Positions 606-44,372 of a stretch of 64,000 nucleotides of DNA are shown here, piece by piece (position 1 is the first letter of the stretch; the number at the start of each line of letters is the position of its first letter). The notes under the pieces were generated by a model. It did no database searches. It was not told the origin of the DNA and worked only from the letters and a program-made list of their open reading frames with translations. Source of the stretch: a virus. The stretch lies in the IMG/VR virus record IMGVR_UViG_3300045988_179664, positions 22,072-86,071 of that record, one strand, 5' to 3'. The position numbers and the translations under genes were made by a program.

Positions 606-1631
606 TCAGGTGTTTGCAAAATTCGGATTCTTCCAAATCGACTTATTCCCGTAATAGACTTCGGGAATGTACTTGATGGGAATTCTGCGATTGTCTTCGA
701 GTTGCGAATCGTTGTTCGCGATAAACTCCTCGATGCGATTTTCTTCACTGCGCGGGGTGATGTTGCAAGTCGAGAAACCTCCACCGTACAGGATATCACT
801 GTTCATCATACCTTTGACCGGATACTTTACTTCGGTCGTTTTACCGTTGATGTTCAGGACAAGGCGAACGGTTTCGTATTGCTTAGCAAGTTCTACAAGA
901 AGCCTGAACATGATTTCCTGAGTGTTCGGACTATTGTACTTTCTCATATACTCTTCCGTCAACTCTTCCACCACAGCCAATGTAATCCCGTATAGGCGTC
1001 CAGACCGCCCGGAATTTGCCTTTTTGATTTTCTCCATCGTCCGTTCAGCCCAGCCGGTGGGATTAGCAAGATAATCCACTACCAGTTCATCAGCGTTTGT
1101 GGATGTCAGGCCAAAGCAAGACCCATTTCCAATCTCATCGACAATGCTGTCAATAGGGCTGCGATAATTCTTATGCCCATTTATTATGCGACAGAAAGCG
1201 TTCTGTCGTGCTATCTTGTCGTAATAACCGCCCTTGAGAATTTTCTTCTTGTCTTCTTCCATCACATTCTCTCGGAACATATCGAACAGCTTCTGTGCCA
1301 TTTCCTCTATGACAGAATCCGAGGTAAAAGAAGAACGGCAGAAAATCGTTTTGAAGTCCTGTGTTTCATTGACGGTTTTGGCATTGTCGACAACGAGGCA
1401 AAGGAAGCGTATCTCTTGGTTGAATGTTACGGGTTTCTTTTCCAAGGTTCCATAAAACCGCTGCCCGTACAAGGCATCTACCTTGTGCTCGCCATTGGCG
1501 AGCGGCACACGAATGAAACGGTAGTAGCGCCCGGACGGTTTTCCGGTATCGGGAATTGTGTTGCCTTCGAACACGGATGCGCCGGATTTGATAGCTTGCT
1601 CAAAATCCTCACGAGTTAAATTGATAGTCAT
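606..1631 (-). CDS. Hypothetical protein of about 341 aa with no recognisable domain. It is the last complete gene of the radical SAM operon.
   Basis: Long ORF. The start MTINLTREDF at 1631 is preferred because AGGAAG lies 7 nt upstream. The ORF-track start at 1682 has no RBS. Confidence 0.5.
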   Translation of the reverse strand: MTINLTREDFEQAIKSGASVFEGNTIPDTGKPSGRYYRFIRVPLANGEHKVDALYGQRFYGTLEKKPVTFNQEIRFLCLVVDNAKTVNETQDFKTIFCRSSFTSDSVIEEMAQKLFDMFRENVMEEDKKKILKGGYYDKIARQNAFCRIINGHKNYRSPIDSIVDEIGNGSCFGLTSTNADELVVDYLANPTGWAERTMEKIKKANSGRSGRLYGITLAVVEELTEEYMRKYNSPNTQEIMFRLLVELAKQYETVRLVLNINGKTTEVKYPVKGMMNSDILYGGGFSTCNITPRSEENRIEEFIANNDSQLEDNRRIPIKYIPEVYYGNKSIWKNPNFANT

Positions 1632-1660
1632 AATTTCTTCCTTTCTGTTTTTATTATTTT

Positions 1661-2425
1661 TTAGCTGTTTTCTTCGATGCACAATTTGCTGCTACGAATG
1701 TTTTCCAACCATTTTTCATCCATAACATTGCCAATACGATACTTCCTCTGGGATTCATAGGACCAGTCACAACCGACGACAACATCACCGATGGCATTCA
1801 GATACAGTTCTCCATCAGTGATATTGATTCCGGCTTCATTTCCCGGTTTACAATCTCTCTCATATTCAATCACAAGTTCCGAAACCATAGGTTCTCTCTT
1901 TAGAATCTGATTTGCGTTGATAGTTTTGGCACGGCCCTCGTTAATGAGATATTGCTTGCGAAAATCCGTTACTTTATCATTACGATTATATCTCAAGCCG
2001 CTAAGAATACTCGCACTTTCGCGGGGAATTTCTTCATGAAAATCATCACTGCTGATACAAAGACCACACGAATAGTCATCCTTGTCATCGCAATAATTCC
2101 ACCATTCGAGGCTCGCCAAAGCGAGTTCTACCATCTTATCGACGGCTTTCCCGTTGGTTACCATATAAAAACTCCCAACGGAAATGTTTCGCTCTCTTAC
2201 GGCGTTCAAAGTATAGCGGATAGCAGGAATATTCAAAGAAATTTCTCCACCCGTAAAGGTCAAGGAACTGATGTATCCTGCATTAGCAAAACTGTCAAGA
2301 AACGCATCGATATATCTTTCCTGAATATCGACCGCCTCCGCATCACCACGCAAACAATGCGCACAGCACATATTACAGCGACGCGTAACCTCGATTACCA
2401 CATTACAAGCGTTTGAAATATACAT
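1661..2425 (-). CDS. Radical SAM domain protein of unknown specificity.
   Basis: CNMCCAHC is a CxxxCxxC 4Fe-4S/SAM motif close to the N-terminus. It also has the FTGGE glycine-rich SAM motif and a VTNG motif. AAAGGAG lies 8 nt before the ATG at 2425. Confidence 0.75.
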   Translation of the reverse strand: MYISNACNVVIEVTRRCNMCCAHCLRGDAEAVDIQERYIDAFLDSFANAGYISSLTFTGGEISLNIPAIRYTLNAVRERNISVGSFYMVTNGKAVDKMVELALASLEWWNYCDDKDDYSCGLCISSDDFHEEIPRESASILSGLRYNRNDKVTDFRKQYLINEGRAKTINANQILKREPMVSELVIEYERDCKPGNEAGINITDGELYLNAIGDVVVGCDWSYESQRKYRIGNVMDEKWLENIRSSKLCIEENS

Positions 2426-3421: not shown

Positions 3422-4219
3422 TTACAGCAAACTCATCTCTGCACGATACGCATCGGCATCGTAGCCCCAGATATTACAAGCAAAATCGATTGCTGCGTTA
3501 CCTTTGCTGGGATAACCGTCGTCAACAAAATCTCCTTTGCAAAGCGCATACCAGCCACAATTACTTCCGATATCCTCATCCGCATATTTTACACGAATAT
3601 TGGCGTGTGGGAATTTACGGCTCAGTTCGACAATGGCGCATGCAGGTGTATTCCAAGGGGTTTTAAAATTGATGGCAATTTCCGTATCATTTATTCTACG
3701 GATATTCACATCAAAAACATCCCACTTTACGCCCCAGTTTGCGACACGCCAATAATACCATGAAGCATATCCATATTTTACGGCATTTTCCAAAGCACGC
3801 TCCGCTACAGTATCGAACTCTTCGACATTATAGGGGATACGTTTCAGGTTGATGAGTTTGCTATCTTTCACGTGTTCCAGTTTGGAGCGAGCTTCCGCAG
3901 CTTCCTTGCAAACACCAACCATATCTGATGCAGTAAGTTTTTCCTTCCTGTGCAGGAGAAAAGTTTCTCTGCAAATAGCCTTTCTTACGTTTTCCGGATA
4001 CTTCTCCGGGTCAATTCCGTATTTATTTACGGCCGCCCATGCGAGCATCCTGTCACATGGCGATACGATTTGCAGTGATTCCGGCATAGGAACAACAGAC
4101 TGAAGCGAAAAATCTTTTTCGCCATCATCGTCTTTTCCCTTGACACGATTCAGAAAATCCTCCAACTCTGCCTGAGAATTGAAAGAAACAGACATGATAT
4201 TCATGATATTGTTTGCCAT
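3422..4219 (-). CDS. Conserved hypothetical protein of 265 aa with a WYYWRVANWGVKWD motif. It may belong to a family associated with plasmids or conjugative-element leading regions, but the family was not confidently recognised.
   Basis: ORF with AAAGGAG RBS 7 nt upstream. The tryptophan-rich motif and a Cys/His cluster (CGWYALC) suggest a conserved fold. Confidence 0.55.
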   Translation of the reverse strand: MANNIMNIMSVSFNSQAELEDFLNRVKGKDDDGEKDFSLQSVVPMPESLQIVSPCDRMLAWAAVNKYGIDPEKYPENVRKAICRETFLLHRKEKLTASDMVGVCKEAAEARSKLEHVKDSKLINLKRIPYNVEEFDTVAERALENAVKYGYASWYYWRVANWGVKWDVFDVNIRRINDTEIAINFKTPWNTPACAIVELSRKFPHANIRVKYADEDIGSNCGWYALCKGDFVDDGYPSKGNAAIDFACNIWGYDADAYRAEMSLL

Positions 4220-6994: not shown

Positions 6995-7646
6995 TTATGC
7001 GAGCATGGGATATATTTCTTTCTTTACCGCCCTCATAAGAGCGGCAGCATGTGCGGCGTTTTGTGCATTGCCAACACCTGCGCGAGATATTTTTGGATTC
7101 ACACGCTCAATGAAATTTTTCTTATACGGGGCAGAAATGCTCCTTGCAGCATCGATAATTTGTTTCATGTTTTCAGCGTCGATTTTTTGCTGAACGCATA
7201 ATTTTTGTAACCGTGTGCAAAAAGCGTCTTTGTTGTCCCGTACAGAAGTAGAATGATTTTTTGTTTCTTTATGTGGGATGACTGCCTCACAGGCTATCCG
7301 TTTAACGCTTAACCCTTTACTGCACATGGTCTGAATAAGCCCGTCATATCCCTTGTCTGCCGACACGATGATATAATTGCTTTTCTTTCCTGTTGTGCAA
7401 AGACTACCAAGTTTAGCAACAACGTGGAAATCCATGCTGTTTTTCCCTGCATTAGAGACGCAAAACTCTACTTGGTTGACTGGGTACTTTGCCAGAAAAA
7501 CCTGCAATTCTTTAAGTGACATGTATGTGGCTTCCGGACCGATGAAGATAATCAGCTTGTCCTTTTTGGTTTTAAAATGCACTACATTTAGCCATTTCTT
7601 TTGGACATTCTCGGTATCTATTAGCCAAACGGTTCGAGTGCAGCTC
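6995..7646 (-). CDS. NYN/LabA-like (PIN-related) domain protein. It is a putative nuclease.
   Basis: The WLIDTENV ... IIVSADKGYDGLIQ motifs resemble NYN-domain acidic motifs. The start is probably a GTG near 7646. The ORF-track start at 7705 overlaps the upstream gene by 50 nt. Confidence 0.5.
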
Positions 7647-7653
7647 ACACATT

Positions 7654-7950
7654 TCACCCCCACACTTCGGTGACTTTTCTGGGGATTCCGTGCTTGTCGA
7701 TACACTGCCGGTAAATTGTAAACTTACTGTTCGGGTGCGCCTTCATATAGTCAGCGCGTGCCGCGTCCGTGTTCGCAATCAGCAAATTTTTATCGGCAAT
7801 AAGAACGCTTTCCCATCCGGAATCGAGAAGCGTACTGGCAACATCTTTGAAAGATACGTCTGCAGGCGTATCGCACTTACAAACCCCTCGTGCGATAGGA
7901 TGCGCAGTGGCAATGATTTTTGCTGCCGTCATCACAGTCTCGTAACTCAT
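7654..7950 (-). CDS. Hypothetical protein of 98 aa.
   Basis: ORF in the operon. Confidence 0.4.
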   Translation of the reverse strand: MSYETVMTAAKIIATAHPIARGVCKCDTPADVSFKDVASTLLDSGWESVLIADKNLLIANTDAARADYMKAHPNSKFTIYRQCIDKHGIPRKVTEVWG

Positions 7951-9105: not shown

Positions 9106-9438
9106 TTAATCTCTGTGATAGCGCTGCATCATACCGAACATAGCCGCAAGCGCCAATGCAAGGTAGATGTAAGTGTATCCCTTTTCAATCATGTTCAGAA
9201 TCACGATGGTAAAGCTCGAAAAAGCACCACAATAAAAAGCGGCACCAAGTTTATCGACCAAAAACATCAACATCTGGGCAACGACTGCCGCAGGAACAAG
9301 AAGCTTGAGACGCTTGGCCTCAATGATTCCGTCCCAGTCAAGAACAGCAATGAAGCTGGCTCCCATGCAGATGACCCAAACAAAAGCGAAAATAAGGGTT
9401 GCTGTGTCAAAAAAGTTACTCATATCAGTTACCTCCAA
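9106..9438 (-). CDS. Small membrane protein of 110 aa with about three transmembrane segments and a charged C-terminus (RYHRD).
   Basis: Tandem paralogue of 9479-9808 (about 45 percent identity, same length, same C-terminal RYHR). Confidence 0.5.
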   Translation of the reverse strand: MEVTDMSNFFDTATLIFAFVWVICMGASFIAVLDWDGIIEAKRLKLLVPAAVVAQMLMFLVDKLGAAFYCGAFSSFTIVILNMIEKGYTYIYLALALAAMFGMMQRYHRD

Positions 9439-9478: not shown

Positions 9479-9808
9479 TTATCTGTGATAGCGCTTTGTC
9501 ATGCCAAACATAGCTGCAATCATAATCGCCAAATATGCGTACAAATACAAATTCTCAATCATTCCAAGAACTGAAATTGTAAGACTGGCGAACATACCGC
9601 AATACAGAACAGCACCAATTTTTTTGATGATGAACAGCGTGGCTTGCGCAATGATGGCGACAACGAGAAAAACTTTGATGTATTTAGCCTCAAATAAACC
9701 ATCCCAATCGATGGCAAGGAAGATACAAGCCCCCACAGCGAGAGCCCAAACCAAAGCAGCAACAGATGCAACAGCGTCAAAGAAGCTTAACATAGCGAAT
9801 ACCTCCAT
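9479..9808 (-). CDS. Small membrane protein of 109 aa, paralogue of 9106-9438.
   Basis: Same architecture. The flanking DNA (ATCTGTGATAGCGCT...) is also duplicated. Confidence 0.5.
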   Translation of the reverse strand: MEVFAMLSFFDAVASVAALVWALAVGACIFLAIDWDGLFEAKYIKVFLVVAIIAQATLFIIKKIGAVLYCGMFASLTISVLGMIENLYLYAYLAIMIAAMFGMTKRYHR

Positions 9809-9845: not shown

Positions 9846-9883
9846 CAGCAAAAAGCCGCCAATGGGACAATCCACTGGCGGCT
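9846..9883 (-). terminator. Hairpin (AGCCGCCA...TGGCGGCT) plus T-run lying between promoter C and the 9808 start.
   Basis: 8-bp stem followed by TTTTTGCTGTTTAT on the minus strand. Confidence 0.4.
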
Positions 9884-9936
9884 CAGTTGCCGATTGCAAT
9901 AATACAGTTAAATCATTTGATTTATGTTATGTCTCA

Positions 9937-9972: not shown

Positions 9973-10944
9973 TCAGAAGACTTCGTCAAGTTTTGCACAT
10001 ACAATAAAACGAGTATCGTAATTATCACTGCCTGAACAGGTGGACAAAATCAAAACCTTATCATTCAATCCAACTTCTGTGGCGTACTGATTGTAAGAGT
10101 AAGCTTTCATACTTGCAATCTCTGTCAGGAAATACGAATCATCCGGATTCGCAATGGTATAACTTGGGTCAATAGGATAATCGGCAACAGCAAAGATTTT
10201 CCATCGTGTCTGTCGTTCACCCAAAGTAAGATAAATATACCGATGTTCTTTTGCAAAGTTGACATCGCGGAAGTATTTCAAAACACTGAATTTCTTGTGC
10301 ATACTGTTTCCGTTGCTATGTCCAAAAATAACAGTTACTCTGTACATATCGTCAACATTGCTGACATTCCATTCGGAGGGAACAAAATAAGCGCCCCAGA
10401 TACTTTCCCTATCGAACTCATTGTGAGTCAGGTAATAATCATCGTCTGTGGGATGCTGCAAAATGGGCTCATCTGTAACATCAACGCCGGGAACAGTTAA
10501 GTAACCAACGGTGTTCTTGGAATACGCTGGCTTTGGTGCCGGTTCCGGTTCTGAATCACTCTCACTTGAATTAGAAGACGGGATAAGAATCGAGGGGGTA
10601 GAAACGGGTTCTTCTACATCGTCGGAGATGTCTCCTGTTTCATATGCAGGAATATGATAGTAATCATACGCCTTCCATCCAATATAGCCAATCATGGCAA
10701 TAAGAACGATGCAAATTACGACCAACAAAACTGTCCAGATGGAAAATCGCCGTTTCTCTTTGCCCTCTGACACGTCCATCGCATCCATCGATTCATTGTC
10801 ATCCTCGTCATGGCTTGCCTTTTGATGAGGGAAGTTTTCACCAGTTCCATCATCCTCATCATTTGGAATGTAATTGTACGCACCAAGTTCCTGCTCGAAA
10901 TGTTCTTCTTTGGGCAGTGGTGGAATAATAGGTGTTTTTGCCAT
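9973..10944 (-). CDS. srtB: Sortase, class B-like transpeptidase with an N-terminal membrane anchor.
   Basis: The catalytic His (IFGHSNG), Cys in a TLxTC-type motif (LILSTCSG) and Arg (TRFIV) are present. One TM segment FSIWTVLLVVICIVLIAMIGYIGW follows an acidic N-terminal tail. Confidence 0.75.
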   Translation of the reverse strand: MAKTPIIPPLPKEEHFEQELGAYNYIPNDEDDGTGENFPHQKASHDEDDNESMDAMDVSEGKEKRRFSIWTVLLVVICIVLIAMIGYIGWKAYDYYHIPAYETGDISDDVEEPVSTPSILIPSSNSSESDSEPEPAPKPAYSKNTVGYLTVPGVDVTDEPILQHPTDDDYYLTHNEFDRESIWGAYFVPSEWNVSNVDDMYRVTVIFGHSNGNSMHKKFSVLKYFRDVNFAKEHRYIYLTLGERQTRWKIFAVADYPIDPSYTIANPDDSYFLTEIASMKAYSYNQYATEVGLNDKVLILSTCSGSDNYDTRFIVCAKLDEVF

Positions 10945-10955
10945 AATACATCACC

Positions 10956-12119
10956 TTACTCAGCTGCGGCAGACCGCTCGTACACATCAATGCAGTAGTT
11001 GCCCATAATCTTGTTATACATACACTCCTGTGCCAAAGGACCTGCTCCATAGGTATCAACGGCGTTATCGTAGTTACTGCCAATATAAGCTTTCACTTCA
11101 TCGACAGACGGTTTATAGTCCTGTTCCTCTGCCAGATACTGCGCAACAAGGCTCAGTAAAACATTTTCTTCCGTCTGACTACGAAGACTTTCTGAATACT
11201 CCTCCGAGGTCTTATAATTGCTGTATGTCTGAACGAATGTCTCCAAGTCCATATTGTAGGCAGTTGCTTCGTTTTCGACATACTTCAAGTTGGTTTCAAG
11301 ACTCAGGTTGACAAGGTCTGTCGTATCCTTTTTGAGTTTTACATTGTCAATGAAATACTGTTCAATCTCATTCTGAATCTTATTCATCCGAAGATTCTCT
11401 TCAACATATTCACGAAGCAGAGCTACTGTAGTTACAGCAGTGCCGTCTTGCAGCTTGTAGCCACTCATGATACCGGCAACATCAGCATCTGTCATGCTAT
11501 ATTGAGAAATTTTATTAAGCGTTACATGGAAAACAGCTTCCTTGTTGGCGAGTTCGATAGTCTGCTCGCCTGTAGTTCTATCTGTTGTACTGCTATATCC
11601 ATCAGGGAATGTTACCGTAACATCAAACGAATCCCCCGTGTTATGCCCGACGATTTGCTCTTCAAATCCGTCAATAAAGGTATTGGAACCGAGTTCCAAA
11701 TCGTAGTCTTCTGTTGTTCCACCGGTAAAAGCAACACCATCAACCGTACCCTCATAGTCAATGTTCACAACATCGCCTTCCTGTGCGGCGCGGTCTGTTA
11801 CCTCTGTTGTCAGCTTGTAATTGGACTGAAAATAATCCAACTCACTTTGAATCTCCTCGTCCGTAACAGCGTATACATCTTTGCTGACCGTATATTCCTT
11901 ATAATTCTTGGGCATCTTTATGTATTTGGACGCGGTCACATCACGAAAATACCCGTCATCATCAAGACCGAGGTCATACTCAACAGCGGAAGCCGTTTCA
12001 GAGGTAGCTGTTTCCGCAGTTTCAGATGTACTTGCATCGGTCACGTTTTTGCCACACGCGGTCAATGCAATACATGCAGCACTGATGACCGCCAGAATCA
12101 TTTTTGCGTTTTTCTTCAT
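10956..12119 (-). CDS. Lipoprotein resembling trigger factor without its ribosome-binding N-domain. It contains an FKBP-type peptidyl-prolyl cis-trans isomerase domain.
   Basis: Lipobox LTAC after MKKNAKMILAVISAACIA. The segment GDVVNIDYEGTVDGVAFTGGTTEDYDLELGSNTFIDGFEEQIVGHNTGDSFDVTVTFPDGY aligns closely with the trigger-factor PPIase domain. AAGGAG RBS before the ATG at 12119. The ORF-track start at 12434 is an upstream artefact. Confidence 0.7.
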   Translation of the reverse strand: MKKNAKMILAVISAACIALTACGKNVTDASTSETAETATSETASAVEYDLGLDDDGYFRDVTASKYIKMPKNYKEYTVSKDVYAVTDEEIQSELDYFQSNYKLTTEVTDRAAQEGDVVNIDYEGTVDGVAFTGGTTEDYDLELGSNTFIDGFEEQIVGHNTGDSFDVTVTFPDGYSSTTDRTTGEQTIELANKEAVFHVTLNKISQYSMTDADVAGIMSGYKLQDGTAVTTVALLREYVEENLRMNKIQNEIEQYFIDNVKLKKDTTDLVNLSLETNLKYVENEATAYNMDLETFVQTYSNYKTSEEYSESLRSQTEENVLLSLVAQYLAEEQDYKPSVDEVKAYIGSNYDNAVDTYGAGPLAQECMYNKIMGNYCIDVYERSAAAE

Positions 12120-12130
12120 GAAAATCTCCT

Positions 12131-12170
12131 TTATAAAAAGACCCCGGCAGACAGGTTGCCTACCGGGGCA
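12131..12170 (-). terminator. Terminator-like hairpin (CCCCGG...CCGGGG followed by a T-run) between the SecE-like gene and the PPIase gene.
   Basis: GC stem followed by TCTTTTTAT on the minus strand. Confidence 0.4.
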
Positions 12171-12175
12171 GTATT

Positions 12176-12427
12176 TTAAACGAACAGGAACGGGACATGA
12201 AGCAGCAGGGCATAAGCTGCATCCATGATACCAATGATAACGGCAGACACAGCGCTCACAGCAAGAACTGCTCCGGTTCGACGGAACGTATTGCGCATAC
12301 TCGGCCAAGTCACATTTTTGGGTGCAACCAGATTGTGCAGTTTCTTGGGCGTGCTCTTGATGAAAGAAGGAATTGCCTTCACGAAATTCACGATAGCCAT
12401 TCCAATCTTTTTCAGTTTCTTTTTCAT
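12176..12427 (-). CDS. secE: SecE-like small membrane protein of 84 aa.
   Basis: KNVTWPSMRNTFRRTGAVLAVSAVSAVIIGIMD matches the SecE signature (K-V-x-W-P ... single C-terminal TM). AGGAGG RBS before the ATG at 12427. Confidence 0.55.
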   Translation of the reverse strand: MKKKLKKIGMAIVNFVKAIPSFIKSTPKKLHNLVAPKNVTWPSMRNTFRRTGAVLAVSAVSAVIIGIMDAAYALLLHVPFLFV

Positions 12428-12678
12428 GCCGCACCTCCTACTCCGGTTACTACGAACATGATGATTGCGATAACAAGCAGAATAGCTGTACATACAGCAA
12501 CCAGTTTATTTGCGGACGTTTTCGTGCTGTCTTTAGCACTCGAGCGCATTGTATCACTGATTCCGGTGATAACACTAAGACTGTTCTTGTCAGCCTTATC
12601 CATGGAAAGCGTAACCGCACAAACCAGAACAGAAACCAGCAGAATCAAGATGCACAGAATGATTTCATAAATTGCCAT
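12424..12678 (-). CDS. SecG-like two-TM small membrane protein of 84 aa. The similarity is weak.
   Basis: Topology is TM, then loop SMDKADKNSLSVITGISD, then TM, like SecG (LLQxxKxxGLSGAxxGG). GGGAGGG RBS. Translationally coupled to the SecE-like gene (ATGA overlap). Confidence 0.4.
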   Translation of the reverse strand: MAIYEIILCILILLVSVLVCAVTLSMDKADKNSLSVITGISDTMRSSAKDSTKTSANKLVAVCTAILLVIAIIMFVVTGVGGAA

Positions 12679-12693
12679 TGTGTTGCCCTCCCG

Positions 12694-14034
12694 TCAATTC
12701 AAGAAACCTTTGTGATGGCGAACCACCAAATGGCTGTTAAGAGAATCGATAACTTCAAGCGTAACACCTGTGACAATCAACAGACTGGTACCGCCAAAGT
12801 GCATATTCAGACCTGTAACCGCAGTTGCCAAGATAGGCACACATGCAATAACCGAAAGAACAAATGCTCCCGAACCGGCGAGAGAATGGCAAGCATTGCG
12901 CAAATAATCACTGGTAGCTTTGCCTGCTCGAATACCGGGGATACTGCCGCCGTTCTTGCGCAGGTTGTTTGCCATTTCGATGGGGTCGAATGTGATGTCG
13001 ATGTAGAATAAGTTGAATGCGAAAATCAGGGCTACATACGCAACATCATAAATCCAATTCCGTGAATTCCAAGATGCCAGCGCCATATACAGGCTGGGGT
13101 GCTTGTTGTAATCGAGGAACATCGTCACGAGAGACGGCATACTGCAAATGGTGGACGAGAAAATAATAGGCATAACACCCGACATAATCAGTTTGATGGG
13201 GATATAACTGGACTGACCAGCGGATGCTTTGTTCCCTACATTTTTACCGGCATACTGAACAGGAACGCGGCGCTCTGCATCGCTTGCGAAAACGACATAG
13301 AAGGTGGCCGCCAAAACAAAGAGGATGACGCCGGGAATCATCAGATAATACCACCATCCATTTTCTTTGCCCATTGCAATAGAGTTCTGGAACAACGAGA
13401 TGACAGCATCCCATCTGGAAATGATACCGGTAAAGATGATAAGGGAAATACCGTTGCCAATACCTTTTTCGTCAATCAGCCATCCAAGCCAGATGACGAT
13501 TTGAGAACCAGCAGTCAGAATGGCAATAACAGTAATGGCTTCCACGACCTGCGAAATGCCGGAAGTGTATTTCATCGCACCGTAGTTCTTCATAATAAAG
13601 AAGTACCCGATAGCTGTTACAGCCGCCAAACCACAACCAACATACTGCGTGATTTTATTGATTTGCTTCTGCCCGCCGATGTCCTTGCTGATTTCTTCCA
13701 GTTTCGGAATCGCAACAGTCAAAAGCTGGATGATGATGCTTGCGTTGATGTATGCAGATACGCCAATCGCAAATACCGCACACTGAGAAAGTGCGCCACC
13801 GGAAACCAGATTGTAATAATCCAGTACAGAGGTGCTTCCGAACATAGTCTGAAGCGCAGCGGTGTTTACGAACGGAATCGTAATACCGCAACCCAGACGA
13901 TAAATCAGAAGACAAAGGATGGTGAAGAGAATCTTGTTGCGAACATCATCCACCATCAGCTTCTGGAAGATGGTGCTGTTCGAATAAGACTTTTTGAGTT
14001 TCGGCTTTTTCGCCGGATTTTTAATGTTGTCCAA
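12694..14034 (-). CDS. secY: Preprotein translocase SecY of canonical type, located outside the ribosomal-protein (spc) operon.
   Basis: DDVRNKILFTILCLLIYRLG, GVSAYINASIIIQLL and the C-terminal GGTSLLIVTGVTLEVIDSLNSHLVVRHHKGFLN align along their full length with Bacillus SecY. TTG start at 14034 with GGAAGGAG 6 nt upstream. There is a 27-aa N-terminal extension. Confidence 0.85.
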   Translation of the reverse strand: MDNIKNPAKKPKLKKSYSNSTIFQKLMVDDVRNKILFTILCLLIYRLGCGITIPFVNTAALQTMFGSTSVLDYYNLVSGGALSQCAVFAIGVSAYINASIIIQLLTVAIPKLEEISKDIGGQKQINKITQYVGCGLAAVTAIGYFFIMKNYGAMKYTSGISQVVEAITVIAILTAGSQIVIWLGWLIDEKGIGNGISLIIFTGIISRWDAVISLFQNSIAMGKENGWWYYLMIPGVILFVLAATFYVVFASDAERRVPVQYAGKNVGNKASAGQSSYIPIKLIMSGVMPIIFSSTICSMPSLVTMFLDYNKHPSLYMALASWNSRNWIYDVAYVALIFAFNLFYIDITFDPIEMANNLRKNGGSIPGIRAGKATSDYLRNACHSLAGSGAFVLSVIACVPILATAVTGLNMHFGGTSLLIVTGVTLEVIDSLNSHLVVRHHKGFLN

Positions 14035-14058
14035 TGCTTACTCCTTCCGCGACTGAGA

Positions 14059-14334
14059 TTATCGAGCAAAGAAAGCAACGATGATTCGCATCAGAAAGGC
14101 TACAACGGCCAACTTCGTTGCAAGCCACATGAACCAATCGAGTTTGTCGATACCTTCGTCGAATACATTTGTTGCGGCAGCATCTTTTTTGTTACTGTCG
14201 CAATCCCCATCAACATGGTTTTTCTTGATTTTGTTGCGATTAAGCACAAACAAAGTTCGAAACAAAGCCCATGTTGCAATACAGAATCCGTATACGATTA
14301 GAAGCTCGATACAGAAACTGTGCAAAGACGACAT
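14059..14334 (-). CDS. Small membrane protein of 91 aa with two transmembrane segments.
   Basis: ORF immediately upstream of secY. Hydrophobic N- and C-terminal helices. Confidence 0.4.
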   Translation of the reverse strand: MSSLHSFCIELLIVYGFCIATWALFRTLFVLNRNKIKKNHVDGDCDSNKKDAAATNVFDEGIDKLDWFMWLATKLAVVAFLMRIIVAFFAR

Positions 14335-15011
14335 TAAGCGGATGCGCCGTTGGCGTCAGGAGTCGTATTGGAGGCGGTCTCGGCAACGGCCTCTACCGGA
14401 GTTTCCGTGACAGTCTCTGCGGGAGAAGTGATATCCCCGGTGATTGCGGGGACGTTGGCATCTTCTGCGACCGACTCATTGATGGGCGCTTCAATAACCG
14501 CATCCTTGACTCCATCAGCAGTCACTTTCTTTGCTGCGATTTTTGCGAAGTGCTCATTGCGCTTTTCACGGCAAGCCTTGCAGCGGGTGGGGAGCTTGTA
14601 GTCATGGACGACATACCAGTACAGCTCGCGATTGGTAAACTGCAGCTTCTGACCGCAATCTGCGCAGGCGTCTTCCAGACCGATGTTATCCAGCCCACGC
14701 TTCACGAAGTCGCGATGAATCTTGCGGCATTCCGGGCAGCGGTTCGGCAGAGAATAACCGTGGCTCTCGAAGAAATCGCGGTCACGATTGGTGATGTCGA
14801 ATTCATGACCGCAGTCAACGCACTTGCGGGTCTCAAACACCTCATTGCTCTTTGCATCAGCTTCCTTGCGAGCTTCATCCTCTGCGCGGCGCTTTGCGAA
14901 ATCGTCACGCATACGACACTCGCGGCACAGCACCTCGCTCTCATTGGCGGTGCTGAACGGCTTGTTGCACTTCTCACAGGTCTTGCGGAATTTCTTTGCT
15001 GCATCTTTCAT
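14334..15011 (-). CDS. Zinc-ribbon repeat protein of 225 aa with three CxxC...RCxxCR units and an acidic C-terminal tail.
   Basis: CEKCNKPF..CRECR, CVDCGHEF..LPNRCPECR and CADCGQKL..LPTRCKACR repeats. AAAGGAG RBS. Confidence 0.5.
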   Translation of the reverse strand: MKDAAKKFRKTCEKCNKPFSTANESEVLCRECRMRDDFAKRRAEDEARKEADAKSNEVFETRKCVDCGHEFDITNRDRDFFESHGYSLPNRCPECRKIHRDFVKRGLDNIGLEDACADCGQKLQFTNRELYWYVVHDYKLPTRCKACREKRNEHFAKIAAKKVTADGVKDAVIEAPINESVAEDANVPAITGDITSPAETVTETPVEAVAETASNTTPDANGASA

Positions 15012-15055: not shown

Positions 15056-15571
15056 TTAGGCGTTGGGACCAGAAAAAGAATCGATAATTTCATCAACGTG
15101 GACGTTCAAGTCGGACTTGTCATCATCTTTCTTGGCGGGCTGTTTTACAGGAACAACGATATCAGGCTCATTCTTCTTTTCCTCCGCCGCCTTTTCTTCA
15201 ACAGGCTTCTCTGCGGATTCATCCTTGGCCTTAGTGACCTCGGACGCGCTATCGGAATCCACCTTGCCGGATTCATCCTTATCGGCATCAGGATTCGCCT
15301 CGGTTGCCTTATCAGTATCCTTTTTCGTCTCATCATGCTTGCGTTCTACGCGGATGACATGAACGGCAGCCACGGGCGCGTGATGAATATCATCGATGCG
15401 CTCATCACAACCGCAGCACTCATCACAGTCATCACAATCGTCGTCATCATAAAGATAACCGTCATCCTCCAACTCTTTGATGACCTCGTTCTTCACATAC
15501 TTGGTCGTGAGTTTCAGGGCAACGGCTGCAACGGTGGCGGCACCAATAACGGACAGAATGTTCTTCTTCAT
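15056..15571 (-). CDS. Secreted or membrane-anchored acidic protein of 171 aa with a Cys-Asp cluster (DDDDCDDCDECCGCDE).
   Basis: N-terminal signal/anchor MKKNILSVIGAATVAAVALKL. AAAGGAG RBS. Driven by a class-1 promoter. Confidence 0.5.
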   Translation of the reverse strand: MKKNILSVIGAATVAAVALKLTTKYVKNEVIKELEDDGYLYDDDDCDDCDECCGCDERIDDIHHAPVAAVHVIRVERKHDETKKDTDKATEANPDADKDESGKVDSDSASEVTKAKDESAEKPVEEKAAEEKKNEPDIVVPVKQPAKKDDDKSDLNVHVDEIIDSFSGPNA

Positions 15572-15618: not shown

Positions 15619-15647
15619 ATTATACCACATAAATATAATGTGGTCAA
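15619..15647 (-). promoter_or_regulatory. Class-1 promoter with -35 TTGACC, 17-nt spacer and extended -10 TGTGG-TATAAT.
   Basis: The minus strand reads TTGACCacattatatttatgTGGTATAAT upstream of the 15571 start. Confidence 0.6.
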
Positions 15648-15864: not shown

Positions 15865-16965
15865 ATGACATTTCAAAAGGGTGTAAAATTTAGAATCTAC
15901 CCAAACCGGGAGCAGCGCAATCTGATTGACCGCACTCTCGGTTGCAGCAGACTCATTTACAATAAAGGTCTTGCCATGCGGGAGGACGCTTTCAAAGGTG
16001 GGGAAAAGTGCGGCTACAAGCAAACTTCTGCTATGCTGACAGCGCTCAAGCAGGATGTGAACTACGCGTTTCTCAAAGAGGTGGATTCCATTGCTTTGCA
16101 GCAAGCGCTGCGAAACCTTGATACCGGATACACAAACTTTTTTGAGCATAGGGCTGCACATCCAAAATTTAAGAATAAGAAAAGCTCTAAGCAGTCGTAT
16201 CATACGCTTAACATTGGTAACGGTATCCGTATTTCTAATAAGCGTATTCGCTTACCGAAAATTGGTTGGGTAAAAGTTCATCAGTCTATGGAGATTGGTG
16301 CAATTCACAACGCAACAGTAGTGCGTACAACCACCGGCAAATATTTTGTAGTTCTTAATGTGGAATATGACCCTCAGCCTATGCCAAACAACGGTTGTGT
16401 AGTAGGCATTGATGTTGGACTCAAAGAATTCTATTCCGATAGTAACGGTACTGTGGTTAATAACCCCAAATACTTGGAGAAGAAAGCCAAAAAACTTGCT
16501 CGCGAACAACGGCGTTTGGCTCGCAAACAGAAAGGCTCACATAATCGTGAAAAGCAGCGCATAAGAGTCGCTGCCACCCACGAAAAGATAGCTAATCAAC
16601 GAAACGATTTCCTTCAAAAACAGTCTACTATGCTGGTGCGTGAAAATCAAACTATCTGCATCGAAGACCTTAATGTAAAGGGAATGCTTCGCAATCATAA
16701 ACTTGCAAGAGCTATTTCCAGTGTTTCGTGGTCGTCTTTCTTTAACATGCTGGAGTACAAAGCCTATTGGTTCGGTTGTACAGTAATTCGTGTACCTACA
16801 TTCTATCCAAGCAGCCAAACATGCAGTTGCTGCGGTCATAAGAATGTGGCTGTTAAGAATCTCAGCATCCGAAAATGGGAATGCCCGTCTTGTCACACGG
16901 TTCATGACAGAGACAAGAACGCTGCCATTAACATTTTGCGTAAAGGGCTTGAAAAGTCCGCTTAA
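15865..16965 (+). CDS. tnpB: TnpB (IS605 OrfB family RNA-guided endonuclease).
   Basis: N-terminal FRIYPNREQ, RuvC-I GIDVGLK, zinc finger CSCCGH...CPSCH and RuvC-III DRDKNAAINILRKG. 366 aa. Confidence 0.85.
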   Translation: MTFQKGVKFRIYPNREQRNLIDRTLGCSRLIYNKGLAMREDAFKGGEKCGYKQTSAMLTALKQDVNYAFLKEVDSIALQQALRNLDTGYTNFFEHRAAHPKFKNKKSSKQSYHTLNIGNGIRISNKRIRLPKIGWVKVHQSMEIGAIHNATVVRTTTGKYFVVLNVEYDPQPMPNNGCVVGIDVGLKEFYSDSNGTVVNNPKYLEKKAKKLAREQRRLARKQKGSHNREKQRIRVAATHEKIANQRNDFLQKQSTMLVRENQTICIEDLNVKGMLRNHKLARAISSVSWSSFFNMLEYKAYWFGCTVIRVPTFYPSSQTCSCCGHKNVAVKNLSIRKWECPSCHTVHDRDKNAAINILRKGLEKSA

Positions 16966-21391: not shown

Positions 21392-22453
21392 TTAAACGCG
21401 AGCGTCAATCAGGCAATTCAGCAGCCCGTTCGCGTCACAGCCAAACAATAAGCATCCGAACACACCAATGGCATGTCCTTTTCTGGTAGAGAATGTTCCT
21501 GCCGTAACACCAAGATGCCCGGCAATCTGCTCATCTGTCCAGTTGTACTTTTTCCCCTCAATCATTGCAAGGATAACGTCATAATAACGTTGACCAAGCG
21601 GAAACTGTTTCATGATTTCGACAGCCCCTCGTATGAGTTTCACATACTCCACAATGAGATAGGCATCGCTTCTGTTTTTATCAGAAACTTTGATTTTACT
21701 CAAATCTTCGTACGAAGAAGACCCAAGCAGCTTCATGGCGGGGTCCTTTGACCGTGAGGCACGATACAGAATACGCGTGTATTCCGTAAGGAGCAGCGGA
21801 ACATTATGATAAAGGCTTGCTTCTTCTACCCCGTCCACATCACTGCTTGTCATCAGGATTTTATAATATTCCTTGATAACACTACCTGCTGTATTGTAAA
21901 CGGATTCAATGCACCGCTCGCAATACTTCATGATTTTGATGCGTCCATTCTTCGGAAGAACGGCAGGATTCAAAAAGCAATCAAACACCTCCCGCATGCT
22001 GGAACAATAATCGACTTCGTACAAGAGTTCTAACCGCGACTCCTCAATGGCGTCAAGAAGCATCTGACAACTTTCAAAGTATTCTTTGCGTTTCCTGAAA
22101 TGCAAAGACTCTTCCTCAATGTTCGGAGCCAGCCAGCTCTGAATACGGCGCAGACGGGAAATGGCTTCGACATCGCACATCTCATCGTCGTGAACGTTTT
22201 CACAGTTCTGCATCATGACATCAAGGTCTTGTGCCTGCATCATCCATTTGAGTGCCGGATACAATATCATCAGAACAGCCGCTTCTTTCAGTTCCGGCCG
22301 CTCTTCCACAACACGGTTTACGCACTTTGTCAGCACATAAGAATTGGGGATGTCTCCGCCAAAACTTCTACGCAGAACAATGTTGTCCTGCATAATAGCA
22401 TCGAGCAATGCGTAAAGCTGCTGTTCTTGGGCTTTATTCAATGCTTCGGACAA
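21392..22453 (-). CDS. Putative regulator of 353 aa with a C-terminal sigma-70 region-4-like helix-turn-helix.
   Basis: YNWTDEQIAGHLGVTAGTFSTRKGHAIGVF resembles a sigma region 4 / LuxR-type HTH. Confidence 0.45.
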   Translation of the reverse strand: MSEALNKAQEQQLYALLDAIMQDNIVLRRSFGGDIPNSYVLTKCVNRVVEERPELKEAAVLMILYPALKWMMQAQDLDVMMQNCENVHDDEMCDVEAISRLRRIQSWLAPNIEEESLHFRKRKEYFESCQMLLDAIEESRLELLYEVDYCSSMREVFDCFLNPAVLPKNGRIKIMKYCERCIESVYNTAGSVIKEYYKILMTSSDVDGVEEASLYHNVPLLLTEYTRILYRASRSKDPAMKLLGSSSYEDLSKIKVSDKNRSDAYLIVEYVKLIRGAVEIMKQFPLGQRYYDVILAMIEGKKYNWTDEQIAGHLGVTAGTFSTRKGHAIGVFGCLLFGCDANGLLNCLIDARV

Positions 22454-24208: not shown

Positions 24209-25168
24209 TTAAATTTCACCGCTCATGGTCAGCTTTGCACGAGCCATGATTTCATATCCTTTTGCATTTGCGGTTACATCCGTCAAGAAGAAAAGGTTCT
24301 TGGTGTCAATGGCTCGCTCGATGCTTTCGCGCATCATAGCAGAACCACCGCCCATAAAGATGAAATAGGATGTTTTGAAGTCGTCCTTGATTTTTTCGGA
24401 AATCGTACGAATCAATGCTGTTGCATAATTGTCTGCGGTTTCCTTGGCAATTTTCACGGCGTTTTCATCGACCAGCATGTTGTTGTTCCCTGCAAGGATT
24501 GCCTCAGCCATGTAGTCATCGACCGACAAGGAACAATGGACACGCAGCTCGCTCTCGACAGTGCTCAGGAGTTCAATGACTCCACGGTCATAGCTTTCGC
24601 AGAAAGAAAGGTCCGGAGCATAAGTGTTGCCACGACCAGAGAAACGAATCACATCCGTGGTATACCCGCCGATGTCTACGACATAAGAACGGGGATAGCG
24701 CTTGATTTCCTTCTGAATCTCGCTTGCTGCCGTAATAGAAAAGCCCTGAGGATAGACAAAGACATGCTTGACAGTAATCTCAAACGGGATATCTTTGTAC
24801 ATGAAATTGATGAGTTTCCCGCTTTTGCCGAAATACTCATCATACTTCGCTTTCAGGGACATATGCTGCGGGGGCAAGCCCATCGCGAGGCATACATCGT
24901 ATTTGTAGAATTTCTGATTGGGATACTTCTTTATAAGGTTCTTTGCTACGGCAATCAGCGTCAGCAAAAAGTAAGTATCATCCTTCGTCTTATCCTGCTG
25001 ATAAGGCGTGCGGCTGTCATTGAGAGAATAATACTTCCCCATATAGCACATCGTCTCTCCCTTGATAGCCGGTTCAGTCGTACCGTGACGAACAAGACCA
25101 GTGGGAAACGGCTCACAGCCAGGCGTCTTCATTGCCTTGTTTCCGGTATCTACTCCAATAATCTCCAT
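24209..25168 (-). CDS. ParM/StbA-family actin-like ATPase, a type II partition protein.
   Basis: Phosphate-1 IGVDTGN, phosphate-2 VVDIGGYTTDV and adenosine motif FIFMGGGSAMM. GGAGGA RBS before the ATG at 25168 (MEIIGVDTGNK). The ORF-track N-terminal extension is an artefact. Confidence 0.75.
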   Translation of the reverse strand: MEIIGVDTGNKAMKTPGCEPFPTGLVRHGTTEPAIKGETMCYMGKYYSLNDSRTPYQQDKTKDDTYFLLTLIAVAKNLIKKYPNQKFYKYDVCLAMGLPPQHMSLKAKYDEYFGKSGKLINFMYKDIPFEITVKHVFVYPQGFSITAASEIQKEIKRYPRSYVVDIGGYTTDVIRFSGRGNTYAPDLSFCESYDRGVIELLSTVESELRVHCSLSVDDYMAEAILAGNNNMLVDENAVKIAKETADNYATALIRTISEKIKDDFKTSYFIFMGGGSAMMRESIERAIDTKNLFFLTDVTANAKGYEIMARAKLTMSGEI

Positions 25169-25406
25169 AAAAAATCCTCCGAACGAGTCGCAATATAGTT
25201 GAAAGTACGAATTTTGGGATACTCTGCGTGATAAAATATAAGTGTCTACCAGATAACAATGGGACTCACTGACTGATGTATAGCGGTTGTTAAAACGGAA
25301 AGAACAACTAATATACAACTGCCTGTTGTTATCATGATACCACACATGCAGTTGTCCAGCAACGAACTTTTGTTCGCATAGACAACAAAAAAGAAAGGAG
25401 TTATTT

Positions 25407-25637
25407 ATGCCATCCACCTTTGATACCATGGTAGGAAAGCGAATCAAAAAGCAACGAATGGAAATCAATTACAGCCAAGAACAGTTGGCGGCAAGCACGA
25501 ATTGTTCCTATCGCTGCATCCAAAAATGGGAGTCAGGAAAGACGATGCCGCGAGCGCAGATGCTATGTAATTTAGCAAAAGCCTTACATGTTTCGTCTGA
25601 CTGGCTGCTGGGTATTTCCAATGACAGGAACGGTTAA
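25407..25637 (+). CDS. XRE/Cro-like HTH regulator of 76 aa.
   Basis: RIKKQRMEINYSQEQLAASTNCSYRCIQKWESGKTMP is a classic HTH_3. AAAGGAG RBS. Confidence 0.7.
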   Translation: MPSTFDTMVGKRIKKQRMEINYSQEQLAASTNCSYRCIQKWESGKTMPRAQMLCNLAKALHVSSDWLLGISNDRNG

Positions 25638-29036: not shown

Positions 29037-29555
29037 TTAAATAATCGAGAACTTACGCTTTTTGTTTGTGAACTCAACAATCATAGAAGGACGACGACTG
29101 CCGATAGTCTCTTTCCGATTCTCAGAGTCAATGAACAGATAAGGGTTCGTCATCTTGATTCTGGCAGGCAGAAACTTTACCCTTACTCCCTGCTGTCCAT
29201 AAATGTATCTCTGGAACCAGTCAGAGTCCGTAGAAACGGGTAAAAGCATGACGACCGTGGTATTCTTTTTCCTTGACTCCTCGTACGCCTTGCGCACCCA
29301 CAACTTAAAGGACTTATGCCCTGTCGGGGGATTGCAAAATACTGTTTCACCTTTCCAGTCCTGCAAGAGACCATCGACACGCTCCGTGTAATATTTCTTG
29401 CATTTATGATTTTTGTCCGATGCAGCCGCATCCAGAGTGAAACCGTATTCCTTGTTCAGGTCATCGAAAAGCCCCTGAGGCGTCTCCCATTCCTGTTTGT
29501 GAGTATTCTTGACTGCATAAGTCTTATCCGTTGTTTTCGTTTCTACGCTGTTCAT
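29037..29555 (-). CDS. Phage-type DNA N6-adenine methyltransferase (Dam family, about 170-aa class).
   Basis: QEWETPQGLFDDLNKEYGFTLDAAAS plus the motif IV-like FCNPPTG. The size is typical. The motif reads NPPT rather than NPP followed by Y, F or W. Confidence 0.6.
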   Translation of the reverse strand: MNSVETKTTDKTYAVKNTHKQEWETPQGLFDDLNKEYGFTLDAAASDKNHKCKKYYTERVDGLLQDWKGETVFCNPPTGHKSFKLWVRKAYEESRKKNTTVVMLLPVSTDSDWFQRYIYGQQGVRVKFLPARIKMTNPYLFIDSENRKETIGSRRPSMIVEFTNKKRKFSII

Positions 29556-31223: not shown

Positions 31224-32759
31224 TTATTTTATGTCGCTTGTGTTTTCGTCAGGTTCGATATGTGTATTGTCATCAGCCTTCTCGATTACAGGCAAACCGT
31301 GAATTTTGATATTGCGGTCAGTCTTAGCATTGATACTGTTCGCACGAACGATATCGGCCATATCGATACCGGTAGCTTCCTTGACGGTCTGCATGGTCTG
31401 TGCCATCAGCACGGGAACATTCCCAGACACGCCGGAAACGCCAGATGCATCGCCGCCGATGATAGATACCTTATCGATTGCGGACAAGGGCTGAGCCACA
31501 TTCTTAGCAATATCAGGCAGGACCTTGATAAGCATTTCAGCGACAGCGGCATCGTTGTACTGCTTGTAAGCCTCCGCCTTTTGCTTCATAGCTTCGGCTT
31601 CAGCAATACCCTTCTGACGGATAGCCTCAGCTTCTGCCTTACCTACAAGGGCAATACCTTCGGCTTCCTGCTGCTTTGCAAATTTCTGAGCCTCAGCAGC
31701 GCGTTCGGCTTCGTATTTTTTTGCTTCTGCTTCTTTTTGGCGTTTATACAATTCGGCATCCGCAGCTTTGCGAACCTCTGCATCCAGTTTTCTCTGCTGA
31801 ACCTCGGCTTCCTGTGCAGCAAGGTCGACCATCTTCTTCTGCTTTGCGATTTCCGCATCAGCTTCGGCTTCTTTGATTTCCTTGGCGCGAAGATTTGTCT
31901 GAATCTGTCCTGCAGCGTTGGCATCAGCAGCAGCCTTGTCAGCCTCGGCCTTCAATTTGGCCTTTGCCAGCTGCAATTCATTGTTGCGCTGTGCAATAGC
32001 AGTCTGGGCTTCAACTTCCTTTTCATTGGCTGCCATTTCAGCGTCAGCCTTTGCGCGAGCAATATCACGAGCGGCTTCGGCACGAGCAATCTCTGCGCGT
32101 TTCTTGACGGCTTCTTCCTGCTCAATACCAATAGCCTCAATGACGCCGTGATTGTGACCTTGCGCATCGACGGCGTCTTTTACATCCTGCACATTGAAGG
32201 TCACAACTTCGAGGCCCATCTTTGCAAGGTCAGGACGGGCATTTTCGATTACTGACAGCGCCATTTGTTTACGATTTGTGAGAATCTGGTCAACCGTCAT
32301 ATCCGAAACGATTTCGCGCAGGTTGCCTTGCAAGACATCATTTACTTTGTCATTGATGCCTTTTTCGTCCATGCCAAGGAAGTTCGAAATAGCCGACTGC
32401 TGACGACCCGTAATATATTCCTTGACATCCTTTGCACCAGATGCCTGAACCTCAGAGTCGAGAACAGTAGAATTATCGCTGTATACCTGAATCGTTACAA
32501 CAGAATCAATCCAGAGCGATACGCCTTCTTTTGTCTTGACACCTGTCTCAGGGGTTTTGACATCAATTTTCAGAAGACGCATATTCAACTTATCTGCACG
32601 CTGCAGCACAGGGATGACGAATGTACCCTTTCCGCAAACGACCTTGGGCTTTTTCAAGCCGAATCCAGTCACAACGATGGCTGCTGTGGGAGGCGCTTTT
32701 TTGTAGCATGTGAATGCGAACAAAACAAACAATACGACAATGATGATTCCTAAAAACAT
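31224..32759 (-). CDS. Flotillin-like SPFH/band-7 protein (FloT/YuaG-like).
   Basis: N-terminal TM, an SPFH domain, then a long Ala/Glu-rich coiled-coil region (EAEA repeats). 511 aa, as in B. subtilis FloT. Confidence 0.8.
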   Translation of the reverse strand: MFLGIIIVVLFVLFAFTCYKKAPPTAAIVVTGFGLKKPKVVCGKGTFVIPVLQRADKLNMRLLKIDVKTPETGVKTKEGVSLWIDSVVTIQVYSDNSTVLDSEVQASGAKDVKEYITGRQQSAISNFLGMDEKGINDKVNDVLQGNLREIVSDMTVDQILTNRKQMALSVIENARPDLAKMGLEVVTFNVQDVKDAVDAQGHNHGVIEAIGIEQEEAVKKRAEIARAEAARDIARAKADAEMAANEKEVEAQTAIAQRNNELQLAKAKLKAEADKAAADANAAGQIQTNLRAKEIKEAEADAEIAKQKKMVDLAAQEAEVQQRKLDAEVRKAADAELYKRQKEAEAKKYEAERAAEAQKFAKQQEAEGIALVGKAEAEAIRQKGIAEAEAMKQKAEAYKQYNDAAVAEMLIKVLPDIAKNVAQPLSAIDKVSIIGGDASGVSGVSGNVPVLMAQTMQTVKEATGIDMADIVRANSINAKTDRNIKIHGLPVIEKADDNTHIEPDENTSDIK

Positions 32760-35912: not shown

Positions 35913-35991
35913 CAAAGAATAGCGCCCCACAGATTTACCTGCGGAGCGCTATATGTTATCTCTTACGCGGAGTAGAGATTATTTCAGTTGG

Positions 35992-43944: not shown

Positions 43945-44261
43945 GTTAGTTGCCCTCCTAATAATGTGAGTGTTCTGTGGTTTTACCACAGCCGGATTTA
44001 TATACACCCTTACCTACTCCCTAGTGTGCAGCCTCGATTGTAGATAAGAAAGTATATCAAAACACAAGCAATCAAATTGCATATTTACAATATGCCACAA
44101 AAAGACAGAAAAGTCAATCAAAAAATTTGGCACAAAAATGCCACCCATGAACGCATTCTCATATTTCGTATGGACATGGATGGTTGAAACATTAACGCAA
44201 AACCTGCTTGACTATAGCTATTATTTGTTCTGAGAAATTTGATGCTGTATTTATATCTATT

Positions 44262-44289
44262 ATATTACTTACTTTGCAGCAACGGTCAA
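44262..44289 (-). promoter_or_regulatory. Class-2 promoter F. It has -35 TTGACC, spacer GTTGCTGCAAAGTAAG and -10 TAATAT. It drives the 2650-aa adhesin gene with a leader of about 300 nt.
   Basis: Member of the motif family. Confidence 0.5.
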
Positions 44290-44320
44290 TAATTATTCTG
44301 AAAATTAGAAGCTTTTTACG

Positions 44321-44344
44321 CAAAAAAAAAGAGCAGCAGCTCTT
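44321..44344 (-). terminator. Rho-independent terminator of the giant DUF11 adhesin gene (AAGAGC-TGCT-GCTCTT followed by T8).
   Basis: 6-bp stem followed by TTTTTTTT on the minus strand, 30 nt after the stop at 44373. Confidence 0.55.
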
Positions 44345-44372
44345 TCGAACCACCGCTCTATTGTTTTACCGC

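Follow-up and report, generated by a model that had tools for sequence, protein, structure and literature searches.

A 64,000-nucleotide stretch of the IMG/VR virus record IMGVR_UViG_3300045988_179664 (positions 22,072 to 86,071; hereafter the window) carries a complete set of SecY, SecG and SecE genes beside genes for a lipoprotein foldase and a class-B-type sortase, together with two genes for giant surface proteins. In our view the window probably comes from a Hodor-type conjugative megaplasmid of human-gut Bacillota, with a translocon, a foldase and a sortase of its own that serve the giant adhesins. A recent preprint defines the ‘Hodor’ conjugative megaplasmids of the human gut, with a mean size of 357 kb, which had at first been catalogued as huge phages (211-389 kb; Yuan et al., bioRxiv, 22 February 2026; PMC12934698). 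Their module of hyp, SecY, SecG, SecE, trigger factor and sortase B genes is already described in that preprint, to which the credit for its recognition belongs (PMC12934698). The identities of the genes, their non-ribosomal context, the purifying selection acting on them, the conservation of their linkage and the presence of signal and sorting motifs in the giant proteins are established, and the plasmid context is probable. The genes of the module and the giant genes are as follows.

12694-14034, minus strand: SecY, canonical type (446 residues; Pfam SecY and TIGR00967)
12424-12678, minus strand: SecG, divergent, with two transmembrane (TM) segments (84 residues; family-level homology)
12176-12427, minus strand: SecE, with a KNVTWP motif followed by a C-terminal TM segment (83 residues; Pfam and TIGR00964)
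10956-12119, minus strand: trigger-factor-like peptidyl-prolyl isomerase (PPIase) lipoprotein (387 residues; FKBP_C and Trigger_C)
9973-10944, minus strand: class-B-type sortase with an acidic N-terminal extension and a TM anchor (323 residues)
35992-43944, minus strand: giant surface protein of ~2650 residues, with a Sec signal peptide, seven MBG_2 (YGX) matches and a C-terminal NYKTG-TM-KKKK
44373-64000, minus strand: giant surface protein of >6540 residues in the window, the frame being open to the window end

The initial annotation had described a full-length, housekeeping-type SecY outside its ribosomal context, forming a complete set with SecG- and SecE-like partners, and all three components are indeed present. 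SecY scores 329.6 bits against the housekeeping equivalog TIGR00967 (cut-off 253.6; profile positions 1-410 of 414) and 291.6 bits against Pfam PF00344 (cut-off 32.2), and its best PDB matches are bacterial SecY chains, with E-values down to 1e-78. The SecY2 models TIGR02920 and NF009082 were both failed (145.0 vs 249.6 and 144.2 vs 353 bits, respectively). Aligned with E. coli SecY (the reference being 100% identical to PDB 5abb_A), the protein has a pore ring of V-I-I-I-I-I at E. coli positions 82/86/187/191/278/408, and it keeps the C5-loop Arg equivalent to E. coli R357 (IPGIRAGK) and the GGTSLLI motif of TM10 (HFGGTSL). A Lys-rich N-terminal extension is present on the plasmid SecY. At the equivalents of E. 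coli R255/R256 in the C4 loop, most element-borne SecY proteins examined have N/K (or S, A, N); the exceptions are P0079, which retains the first Arg, and P0084, which has R-K. All four cellular relatives have R-K at this pair, and the two sequences of the L016 group (see below) have R-K and R-V. The start codon of the gene is TTG, preceded by GGAAGGAG. Neither ribosomal protein genes, rplO included, nor adk, map or infA occur near SecY, and the gene is thus not in the rplO-secY-adk-map position of the spc operon.

The middle gene begins 15 nt past the SecY stop codon and has its own ribosome-binding site. Taken alone, its 84-residue, two-TM product stays below the SecG cut-offs, with 18.4 bits against 29.2 for Pfam PF03840 (E-value 2e-3) and 20.3 against 30.85 for TIGR00810 (E-value 4e-4). 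Its family tells more. When members were gathered from related loci and a protein search, Pfam SecG was matched by 11 of the 12 (E≤0.01; best 7e-7), and no other family recurred. An exhaustive hmmsearch of 1.84 billion representatives with the family profile gave 94 matches, and 43 of the 45 distant matches that were sampled are Pfam SecG at E≤1e-5. In hhalign, the family and a SecG alignment matched with 98.9% probability (E-value 2.6e-17) over 82 columns that include both TM helices. Searches of PDB sequences with the family profile and with the SecG of L016 found no SecG chain, a result that is uninformative for so short a protein. By these sequence comparisons the product is a divergent SecG, in which most of the Gly-rich loop, still present in the far relative L016, is gone; the SecG-like label given to it at the outset is thereby borne out at family level. 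The ATG of SecE overlaps the TGA of SecG as ATGA. The SecE assignment passes both Pfam PF00584 (33.5 bits, cut-off 22.7) and TIGR00964 (32.8 bits, cut-off 27.55); its identity was correctly called in the initial annotation, and the length given there, 84 residues, should read 83. Between the 99%- and 90%-identical lineages described below, the ratio of nonsynonymous to synonymous substitution (dN/dS) is 0.05 for SecY, 0.11 for SecG and 0.13 for SecE, and all three genes are therefore under purifying selection.

The next two genes had been annotated as a trigger-factor-like PPIase lipoprotein and a class B sortase, and both descriptions hold. The foldase scores 61.2 bits for FKBP_C and 24.6 bits for Trigger_C. 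Against the trigger factor model TIGR00115 it reaches 170.3 bits (cut-off 180.2) and matches profile positions 108-371 only, which means that the ribosome-binding N domain is missing; the full three-domain architecture of a cytosolic trigger factor was not found. Its N terminus is a signal peptide ending in an LTAC lipobox that is invariant in relatives. With a lipobox signal peptide and no ribosome-binding domain, the protein is an extracytoplasmic lipoprotein. Foldase homologues with lipoboxes and 30-40% identity are found on chromosomes of Faecalibacterium, Gemmiger, Anaerobutyricum and Lacrimispora, as well as in Lachnospiraceae (GTDB genome loci L087, L097, L104, L108 and L151), and a GTDB scan with the foldase alignment returned chromosomal homologues only, in this same range of identity. 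This distribution points to a widespread family of predicted extracytoplasmic trigger-factor-like foldases in Clostridia.

The sortase has no Pfam Sortase match. It matches TIGR03064 over positions 9-235 of 235 with an E-value of 4.8e-22, yet its score of 78.4 bits is below the equivalog cut-off of 153.75. His209, Cys303 (in LSTC) and Arg312 are invariant across relatives, including the PF04203-positive sortase of L016, and the TM segment lies at about residues 68-92.

Two giant adhesin genes had been placed within 25 kb of the Sec genes, and they are seen 22 kb away, complete with sorting signals. The protein encoded from 44373 contains six MBG_2, 23 DUF11 and 20 DUF7507 matches and ends in NKKTG, a TM segment and a basic tail. 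In the ~2,600-residue protein the sorting motif is NYKTG in the window and QAPTG in the 90% lineage (L001, 1-4230), while the TM segment and basic tail are common to both lineages. Hodor giant proteins of 7309-7704 and ~2642 residues are reported to combine MBG (YGX) and S-layer domains with signal peptides and sorting signals (PMC12934698). The guanine-cytosine (GC) content is ~50% across the giant genes (~36000-64000), against ~43-46% elsewhere in the window. Long open reading frames (ORFs) run antisense to the giant genes on the plus strand at 47436-59381, 35953-42591, 44208-47282 and 60678-63068 (3981, 2212, 1024 and 796 codons, respectively). Both of the two that were scanned lack a Pfam match, and these frames are probably a by-product of repetitive, biased codon composition.

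The arrangement is conserved well beyond the window. Lineages with 99%, 90% and 59% SecY identity (L003 being the 99% and L001 the 90% lineage) all have the genes in one order: zinc-ribbon, SecY, SecG, SecE, foldase, sortase. More distantly, the trio stands outside a ribosomal context on a 24.7-kb Logan contig (L016, SRR32503445; 55% SecY identity), where its neighbours are a SpaA-domain protein of >2400 residues, a PF04203 sortase and a bactofilin. A trio outside a ribosomal context was also found on a 120.7-kb ENA contig (L012, ERZ27318122; 71% SecY identity), near dCMP deaminase and NT5C genes. In the Hodor genomes, SecY, SecG and SecE are reported as one co-transcribed set and trigger factor and sortase B as another (PMC12934698). 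The few genes common to both Hodor groups include those for Sec, the sortase and the giant proteins (PMC12934698).

IMG/VR ‘viral’ contigs with the same module measure 240,696, 345,980 and 389,222 bp, and 99%- and 90%-identical SecY relatives occur on ENA contigs of up to 382 kb. The Hodor gene cluster and two giant MBG proteins with sorting signals are all found in the window, the larger protein being cut by the window end. As for replicon features, the window encodes a ParM/Alp-like protein and relatives are on contigs of 346-389 kb; Rep_3, ParA/B and the type IV secretion system (T4SS) lie outside the sequence read. The window has a GC content of 46.7%, flanking loci of the same lineage 43.7%, and the 90% lineage 48.4-49%. 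Hodor group G1 is reported at 47.1% and G2 at 44.6% GC (PMC12934698), and the values of 43.7% and 48.4-49% suggest that the window belongs to G2 and the 90% lineage to G1.

Several points weigh against a megaplasmid whose Sec module is devoted to its adhesins. In L012 neither a foldase nor a sortase adjoins the trio, so that this linkage is not obligatory. The 346-kb contig carries phage-like Bro-N/ANT, YopX, dCMP deaminase and DnaE-type polymerase genes. The sortase and the trigger-factor-like protein both fall under their NCBIfam equivalog cut-offs. The plasmid assignment rests on the preprint, where the Rep_3, ParA/B and T4SS genes are reported (PMC12934698). Finally, that the giant proteins use the channel of the plasmid and not that of the host is something that we, like the authors of the preprint, infer.

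The first of these points would suit a general-purpose translocon, in which the plasmid SecYEG adds to the total secretion or membrane-insertion capacity for the many membrane proteins of the plasmid (those of the T4SS included), or offers a compatible channel in diverse hosts, and is not dedicated to adhesins. The channel is also fully canonical in its pore ring, R357 loop and profile scores, with no SecY2-type specialisation, and the giant genes sit 22 kb off in a separate operon. However, the trio adjoins a foldase and a sortase in the 99%, 90% and 59% lineages, and a SpaA giant and a sortase in the 55% relative, and both Hodor groups have kept the Sec genes, the sortase and the giants among the few genes that they share (PMC12934698). 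A general-purpose role thus seems unlikely to us, if still worth serious consideration.

The phage-like genes raise a different possibility, that of a jumbo phage whose Sec genes are auxiliary genes used in infection. All of the large module-bearing contigs were found as viral in IMG/VR, and the genes on the 346-kb contig, which also include a 5'-3' deoxyribonucleotidase, give strong PHROG matches. Against this, terminase occurs only in Hodor genomes with an inserted prophage, and all Hodor genomes have Rep_3, ParA/B/M, VirB4/VirD4/VirB6 and a MOBH-like relaxase (PMC12934698). Within the window, most ORFs have neither a Pfam nor a PHROG match, no PHROG structural match was found among them, and the tRNA and Rfam scans were empty. 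Wall-anchored adhesins and sortases would, moreover, be more at home on a resident replicon than in a lytic virus. The jumbo phage was rejected on the evidence of the preprint (PMC12934698); since the phage-like genes are seen directly on the 346-kb contig and the replication and conjugation genes are known from the preprint, a phage is kept as a highly improbable outcome. A literature search on phage-encoded SecY or SecE found nothing relevant.

A GTDB scan of 185,579 representative genomes with the SecY peptides found no close relative, and a megablast search with the 5.2-kb region matched nothing among GenBank phages or PLSDB plasmids. In tblastn of SecY against the same phages and plasmids, the only matches were of <46% identity; these appear to be chromosomal-type secY genes and not homologous elements, as several lie in multi-megabase records, carry an ordinary secY annotation or have rplO or adk beside them. 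The cellular SecY sequences P0103 (48.5% identity; its sequence group includes an NCBI-named Gemmiger sp. SecY) and P0101 (44.5%) are both encoded in an ordinary rplO-secY-adk-map-infA operon, and in the cellular loci examined secE and secG were never beside secY. As probable cargo of a megaplasmid, and with the closest cellular SecY only 49% identical and in a normal spc operon, the copy described here is ‘extra’ almost by definition. The initial proposal of extra SecYEG paralogues was accordingly right about the additional copy; what it missed is that the genes are no paralogues in a bacterial chromosome and are probably cargo of a >300 kb conjugative megaplasmid. That the gene is the housekeeping secY of a bacterium with a rearranged spc operon, as its passing of the housekeeping equivalog model might suggest, can be given almost no weight and was rejected on the lack of ribosomal or other core genes in 64 kb and the lack of a close GTDB relative, together with the 49% identity to the nearest cellular SecY and the adjacency of secE and secG. 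Membership in the accessory Sec (SecA2/SecY2) family, suggested by the similar logic of a second SecY near giant sortase-anchored adhesins, is just as improbable and was rejected because SecY passes the housekeeping model and fails both SecY2 models, true SecE and SecG stand in place of Asp4/Asp5, and the window contains no SecA-sized ORF with a Pfam match and, among the scanned ORFs, no Asp or glycosyltransferase families. The initial annotation had likewise seen canonical-type Sec genes lacking SecA2 and Asp partners, and a look for secA2 within the window was negative.

Upstream of SecY, and around the two gene sets of the module, the following features were located; they include the triple zinc-ribbon protein and the 91-residue membrane protein noted at the outset upstream of SecY, and the terminator noted after SecE.

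15619-15647, minus strand: promoter-like site, TTGACC, 17 nt, TG-TATAAT (11/12 matches, from a consensus scan only)
15056-15571, minus strand: acidic protein with an N-terminal TM segment and no family (171 residues), the first gene past the promoter-like site; kept in L003
14334-15011, minus strand: zinc-ribbon/treble-clef ‘hyp’ protein (225 residues; Pfam zf_Tbcl, 39.6 bits), encoded directly upstream of SecY in relatives
14059-14334, minus strand: two-TM ORF (91 residues), called in L003 (99% lineage) and not in L001 (90% lineage)
12141-12169, minus strand: terminator-like hairpin with a 13 bp stem (8 GC) and a T-run, right after SecE (sequence scan)
9853-9884, minus strand: terminator-like hairpin after the sortase gene (sequence scan)

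The ‘hyp’ protein has three CxxC...CxxC units with twelve invariant Cys and a disordered tail, and its gene is upstream of SecY also in L001, L003 and L010/L011. An AlphaFold2 model of the protein, confident over residues 1-166 (predicted local distance difference test score ~88), gave no significant PDB fold match, the best having an E-value of 0.02 and a TM-score of ~0.1. The 91-residue ORF is lineage-specific and its importance is doubtful. The promoter-like site, which was the best in the scan and has an extended -10 element, lies upstream of the 171-residue gene and is a candidate start for a transcript running into SecY-SecG-SecE. The foldase start codon (12119) is only 22 nt past the stem of the SecE terminator, and no promoter-like site was seen between that terminator and the foldase start, nor inside secE; given this short gap and the lack of such a site, transcription of the foldase and sortase genes may need read-through of the SecE terminator.

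Other genes of the window were recorded in passing. An IS605-family TnpB gene (15865-16965, plus strand), with HTH_OrfB_IS605, OrfB_IS605 and Cas12f1-like TNB domains, sits between the 171-residue gene and the one upstream of that; the 99%-identical L003 lacks it at this site, indicating a recent insertion. Just downstream of the sortase terminator are two tandem genes (9106-9438 and 9479-9808, minus strand) for paralogous small membrane proteins of 110 and 109 residues, both of which end in ...RYHR and lack a Pfam match. Recognisable cargo, all on the minus strand, includes a ParM/Alp7A-like actin (24209-25468), a Dam methylase (29037-29555), a flotillin/SPFH protein (31224-32759), PIN7 (6995-7705), a radical SAM protein (1661-2446) and an Api92-like DUF1281_C protein (3422-4219). 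For the gene that encodes a 358-residue protein at the left end of the window (606-1682, minus strand), a paralogue of 70% identity was seen at a distance of ~70-80 kb on the same 346-kb contig, in a region (L057; IMGVR_UViG_3300023499_000220, 186886-207902) with genes for a DnaE-type polymerase, Bro-N/ANT, YopX, dCMP deaminase, TraX and a zeta toxin.

The combined results suggest how the megaplasmid module might work. The two giant MBG/DUF11 proteins would be targeted by their signal peptides and threaded through a channel made of the plasmid SecY, SecE and SecG. As no SecA is encoded in the window, host SecA is presumably the motor. On the outer face of the membrane, the lipoprotein foldase would fold the emerging giants, and the sortase would then cut them at N[YK]KTG and link them to the cell wall. 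The plasmid would in effect take a portable surface-display kit along with it. A dedicated route of export, folding and anchoring for the giant proteins is a conclusion also drawn by the authors of the preprint (PMC12934698).

More tentatively, and with somewhat less than even confidence, the module may represent a broader, hitherto unrecognised clade of self-contained, canonical SecY-SecG-SecE sets on mobile elements, extending far past the two Hodor groups (SecY tiers of 82-54% identity, some beside SpaA giants), which together with host SecA and an extracytoplasmic trigger-factor-like lipoprotein would provide host-independent adhesin export and folding, the C4-loop change reflecting altered coupling to the ribosome or the motor. 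It is unusual to find a complete SecYEG on a mobile element, since its genes belong to the core set, are normally present in single copy and are bound to the chromosome. If the proposed role is true, a conjugative element can import its own line of export, folding and anchoring and so remodel the surface of any Bacillota host, and the system would offer a natural setting in which to study the limits of Sec export for giant proteins (2,650 and >7,300 residues).

Among known systems, the accessory Sec pathway of streptococci and staphylococci (SecA2-SecY2-Asp1-5 with GtfA/B) is a second SecY-type channel tied to very large cell-wall-anchored adhesins. The plasmid module resembles it in that it, too, appears to pair a second SecY-type channel with giant anchored adhesins. 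In contrast to the accessory system, the SecY here is of the housekeeping type, is accompanied by genuine SecE and SecG and is plasmid-borne, and the window has no SecA2, Asp or glycosyltransferase gene. The closest cellular proteins are the housekeeping SecY of Oscillospiraceae (Gemmiger, 48-49% identity; Subdoligranulum, 45.5% in tblastn), which have the same pore ring and C5 loop. The cellular gene, however, resides in rplO-secY-adk-map-infA without secE or secG, and only the plasmid clade has the C4-loop Arg mostly replaced and the Lys-rich N-terminal extension. The PrsA-type foldases of Bacillota are lipid-anchored parvulin PPIases that act on proteins leaving SecYEG. By analogy, the foldase of the module would be another lipid-anchored PPIase at this site; it differs in being of the FKBP type and fused to a trigger-factor C-terminal chaperone domain.

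The closest likeness is to the Hodor megaplasmids themselves, with which the window shares the list and order of genes, both giant proteins, a ParM gene, TnpB insertions, contigs of 211-389 kb and a GC range of 44.6-47.1%. The window copy differs in its TnpB insertion at 15865-16965 and the lineage-specific 91-residue ORF, and in nothing essential. The text of the preprint mentions neither SecA nor a lipoprotein (PMC12934698). The value of the present analysis is a confirmation from raw sequence, with a firmer SecG assignment; beyond the preprint it adds the lack of SecA in the window, the N[YK]KTG and QAPTG sorting motifs, the C4-loop replacement, the distant trios and the lipoprotein foldase. 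On this last point the two accounts diverge: what the preprint names a ‘trigger factor’ chaperone is, in the window, a lipoprotein without the ribosome-binding domain, and its name should be corrected to that of an extracytoplasmic lipoprotein foldase.

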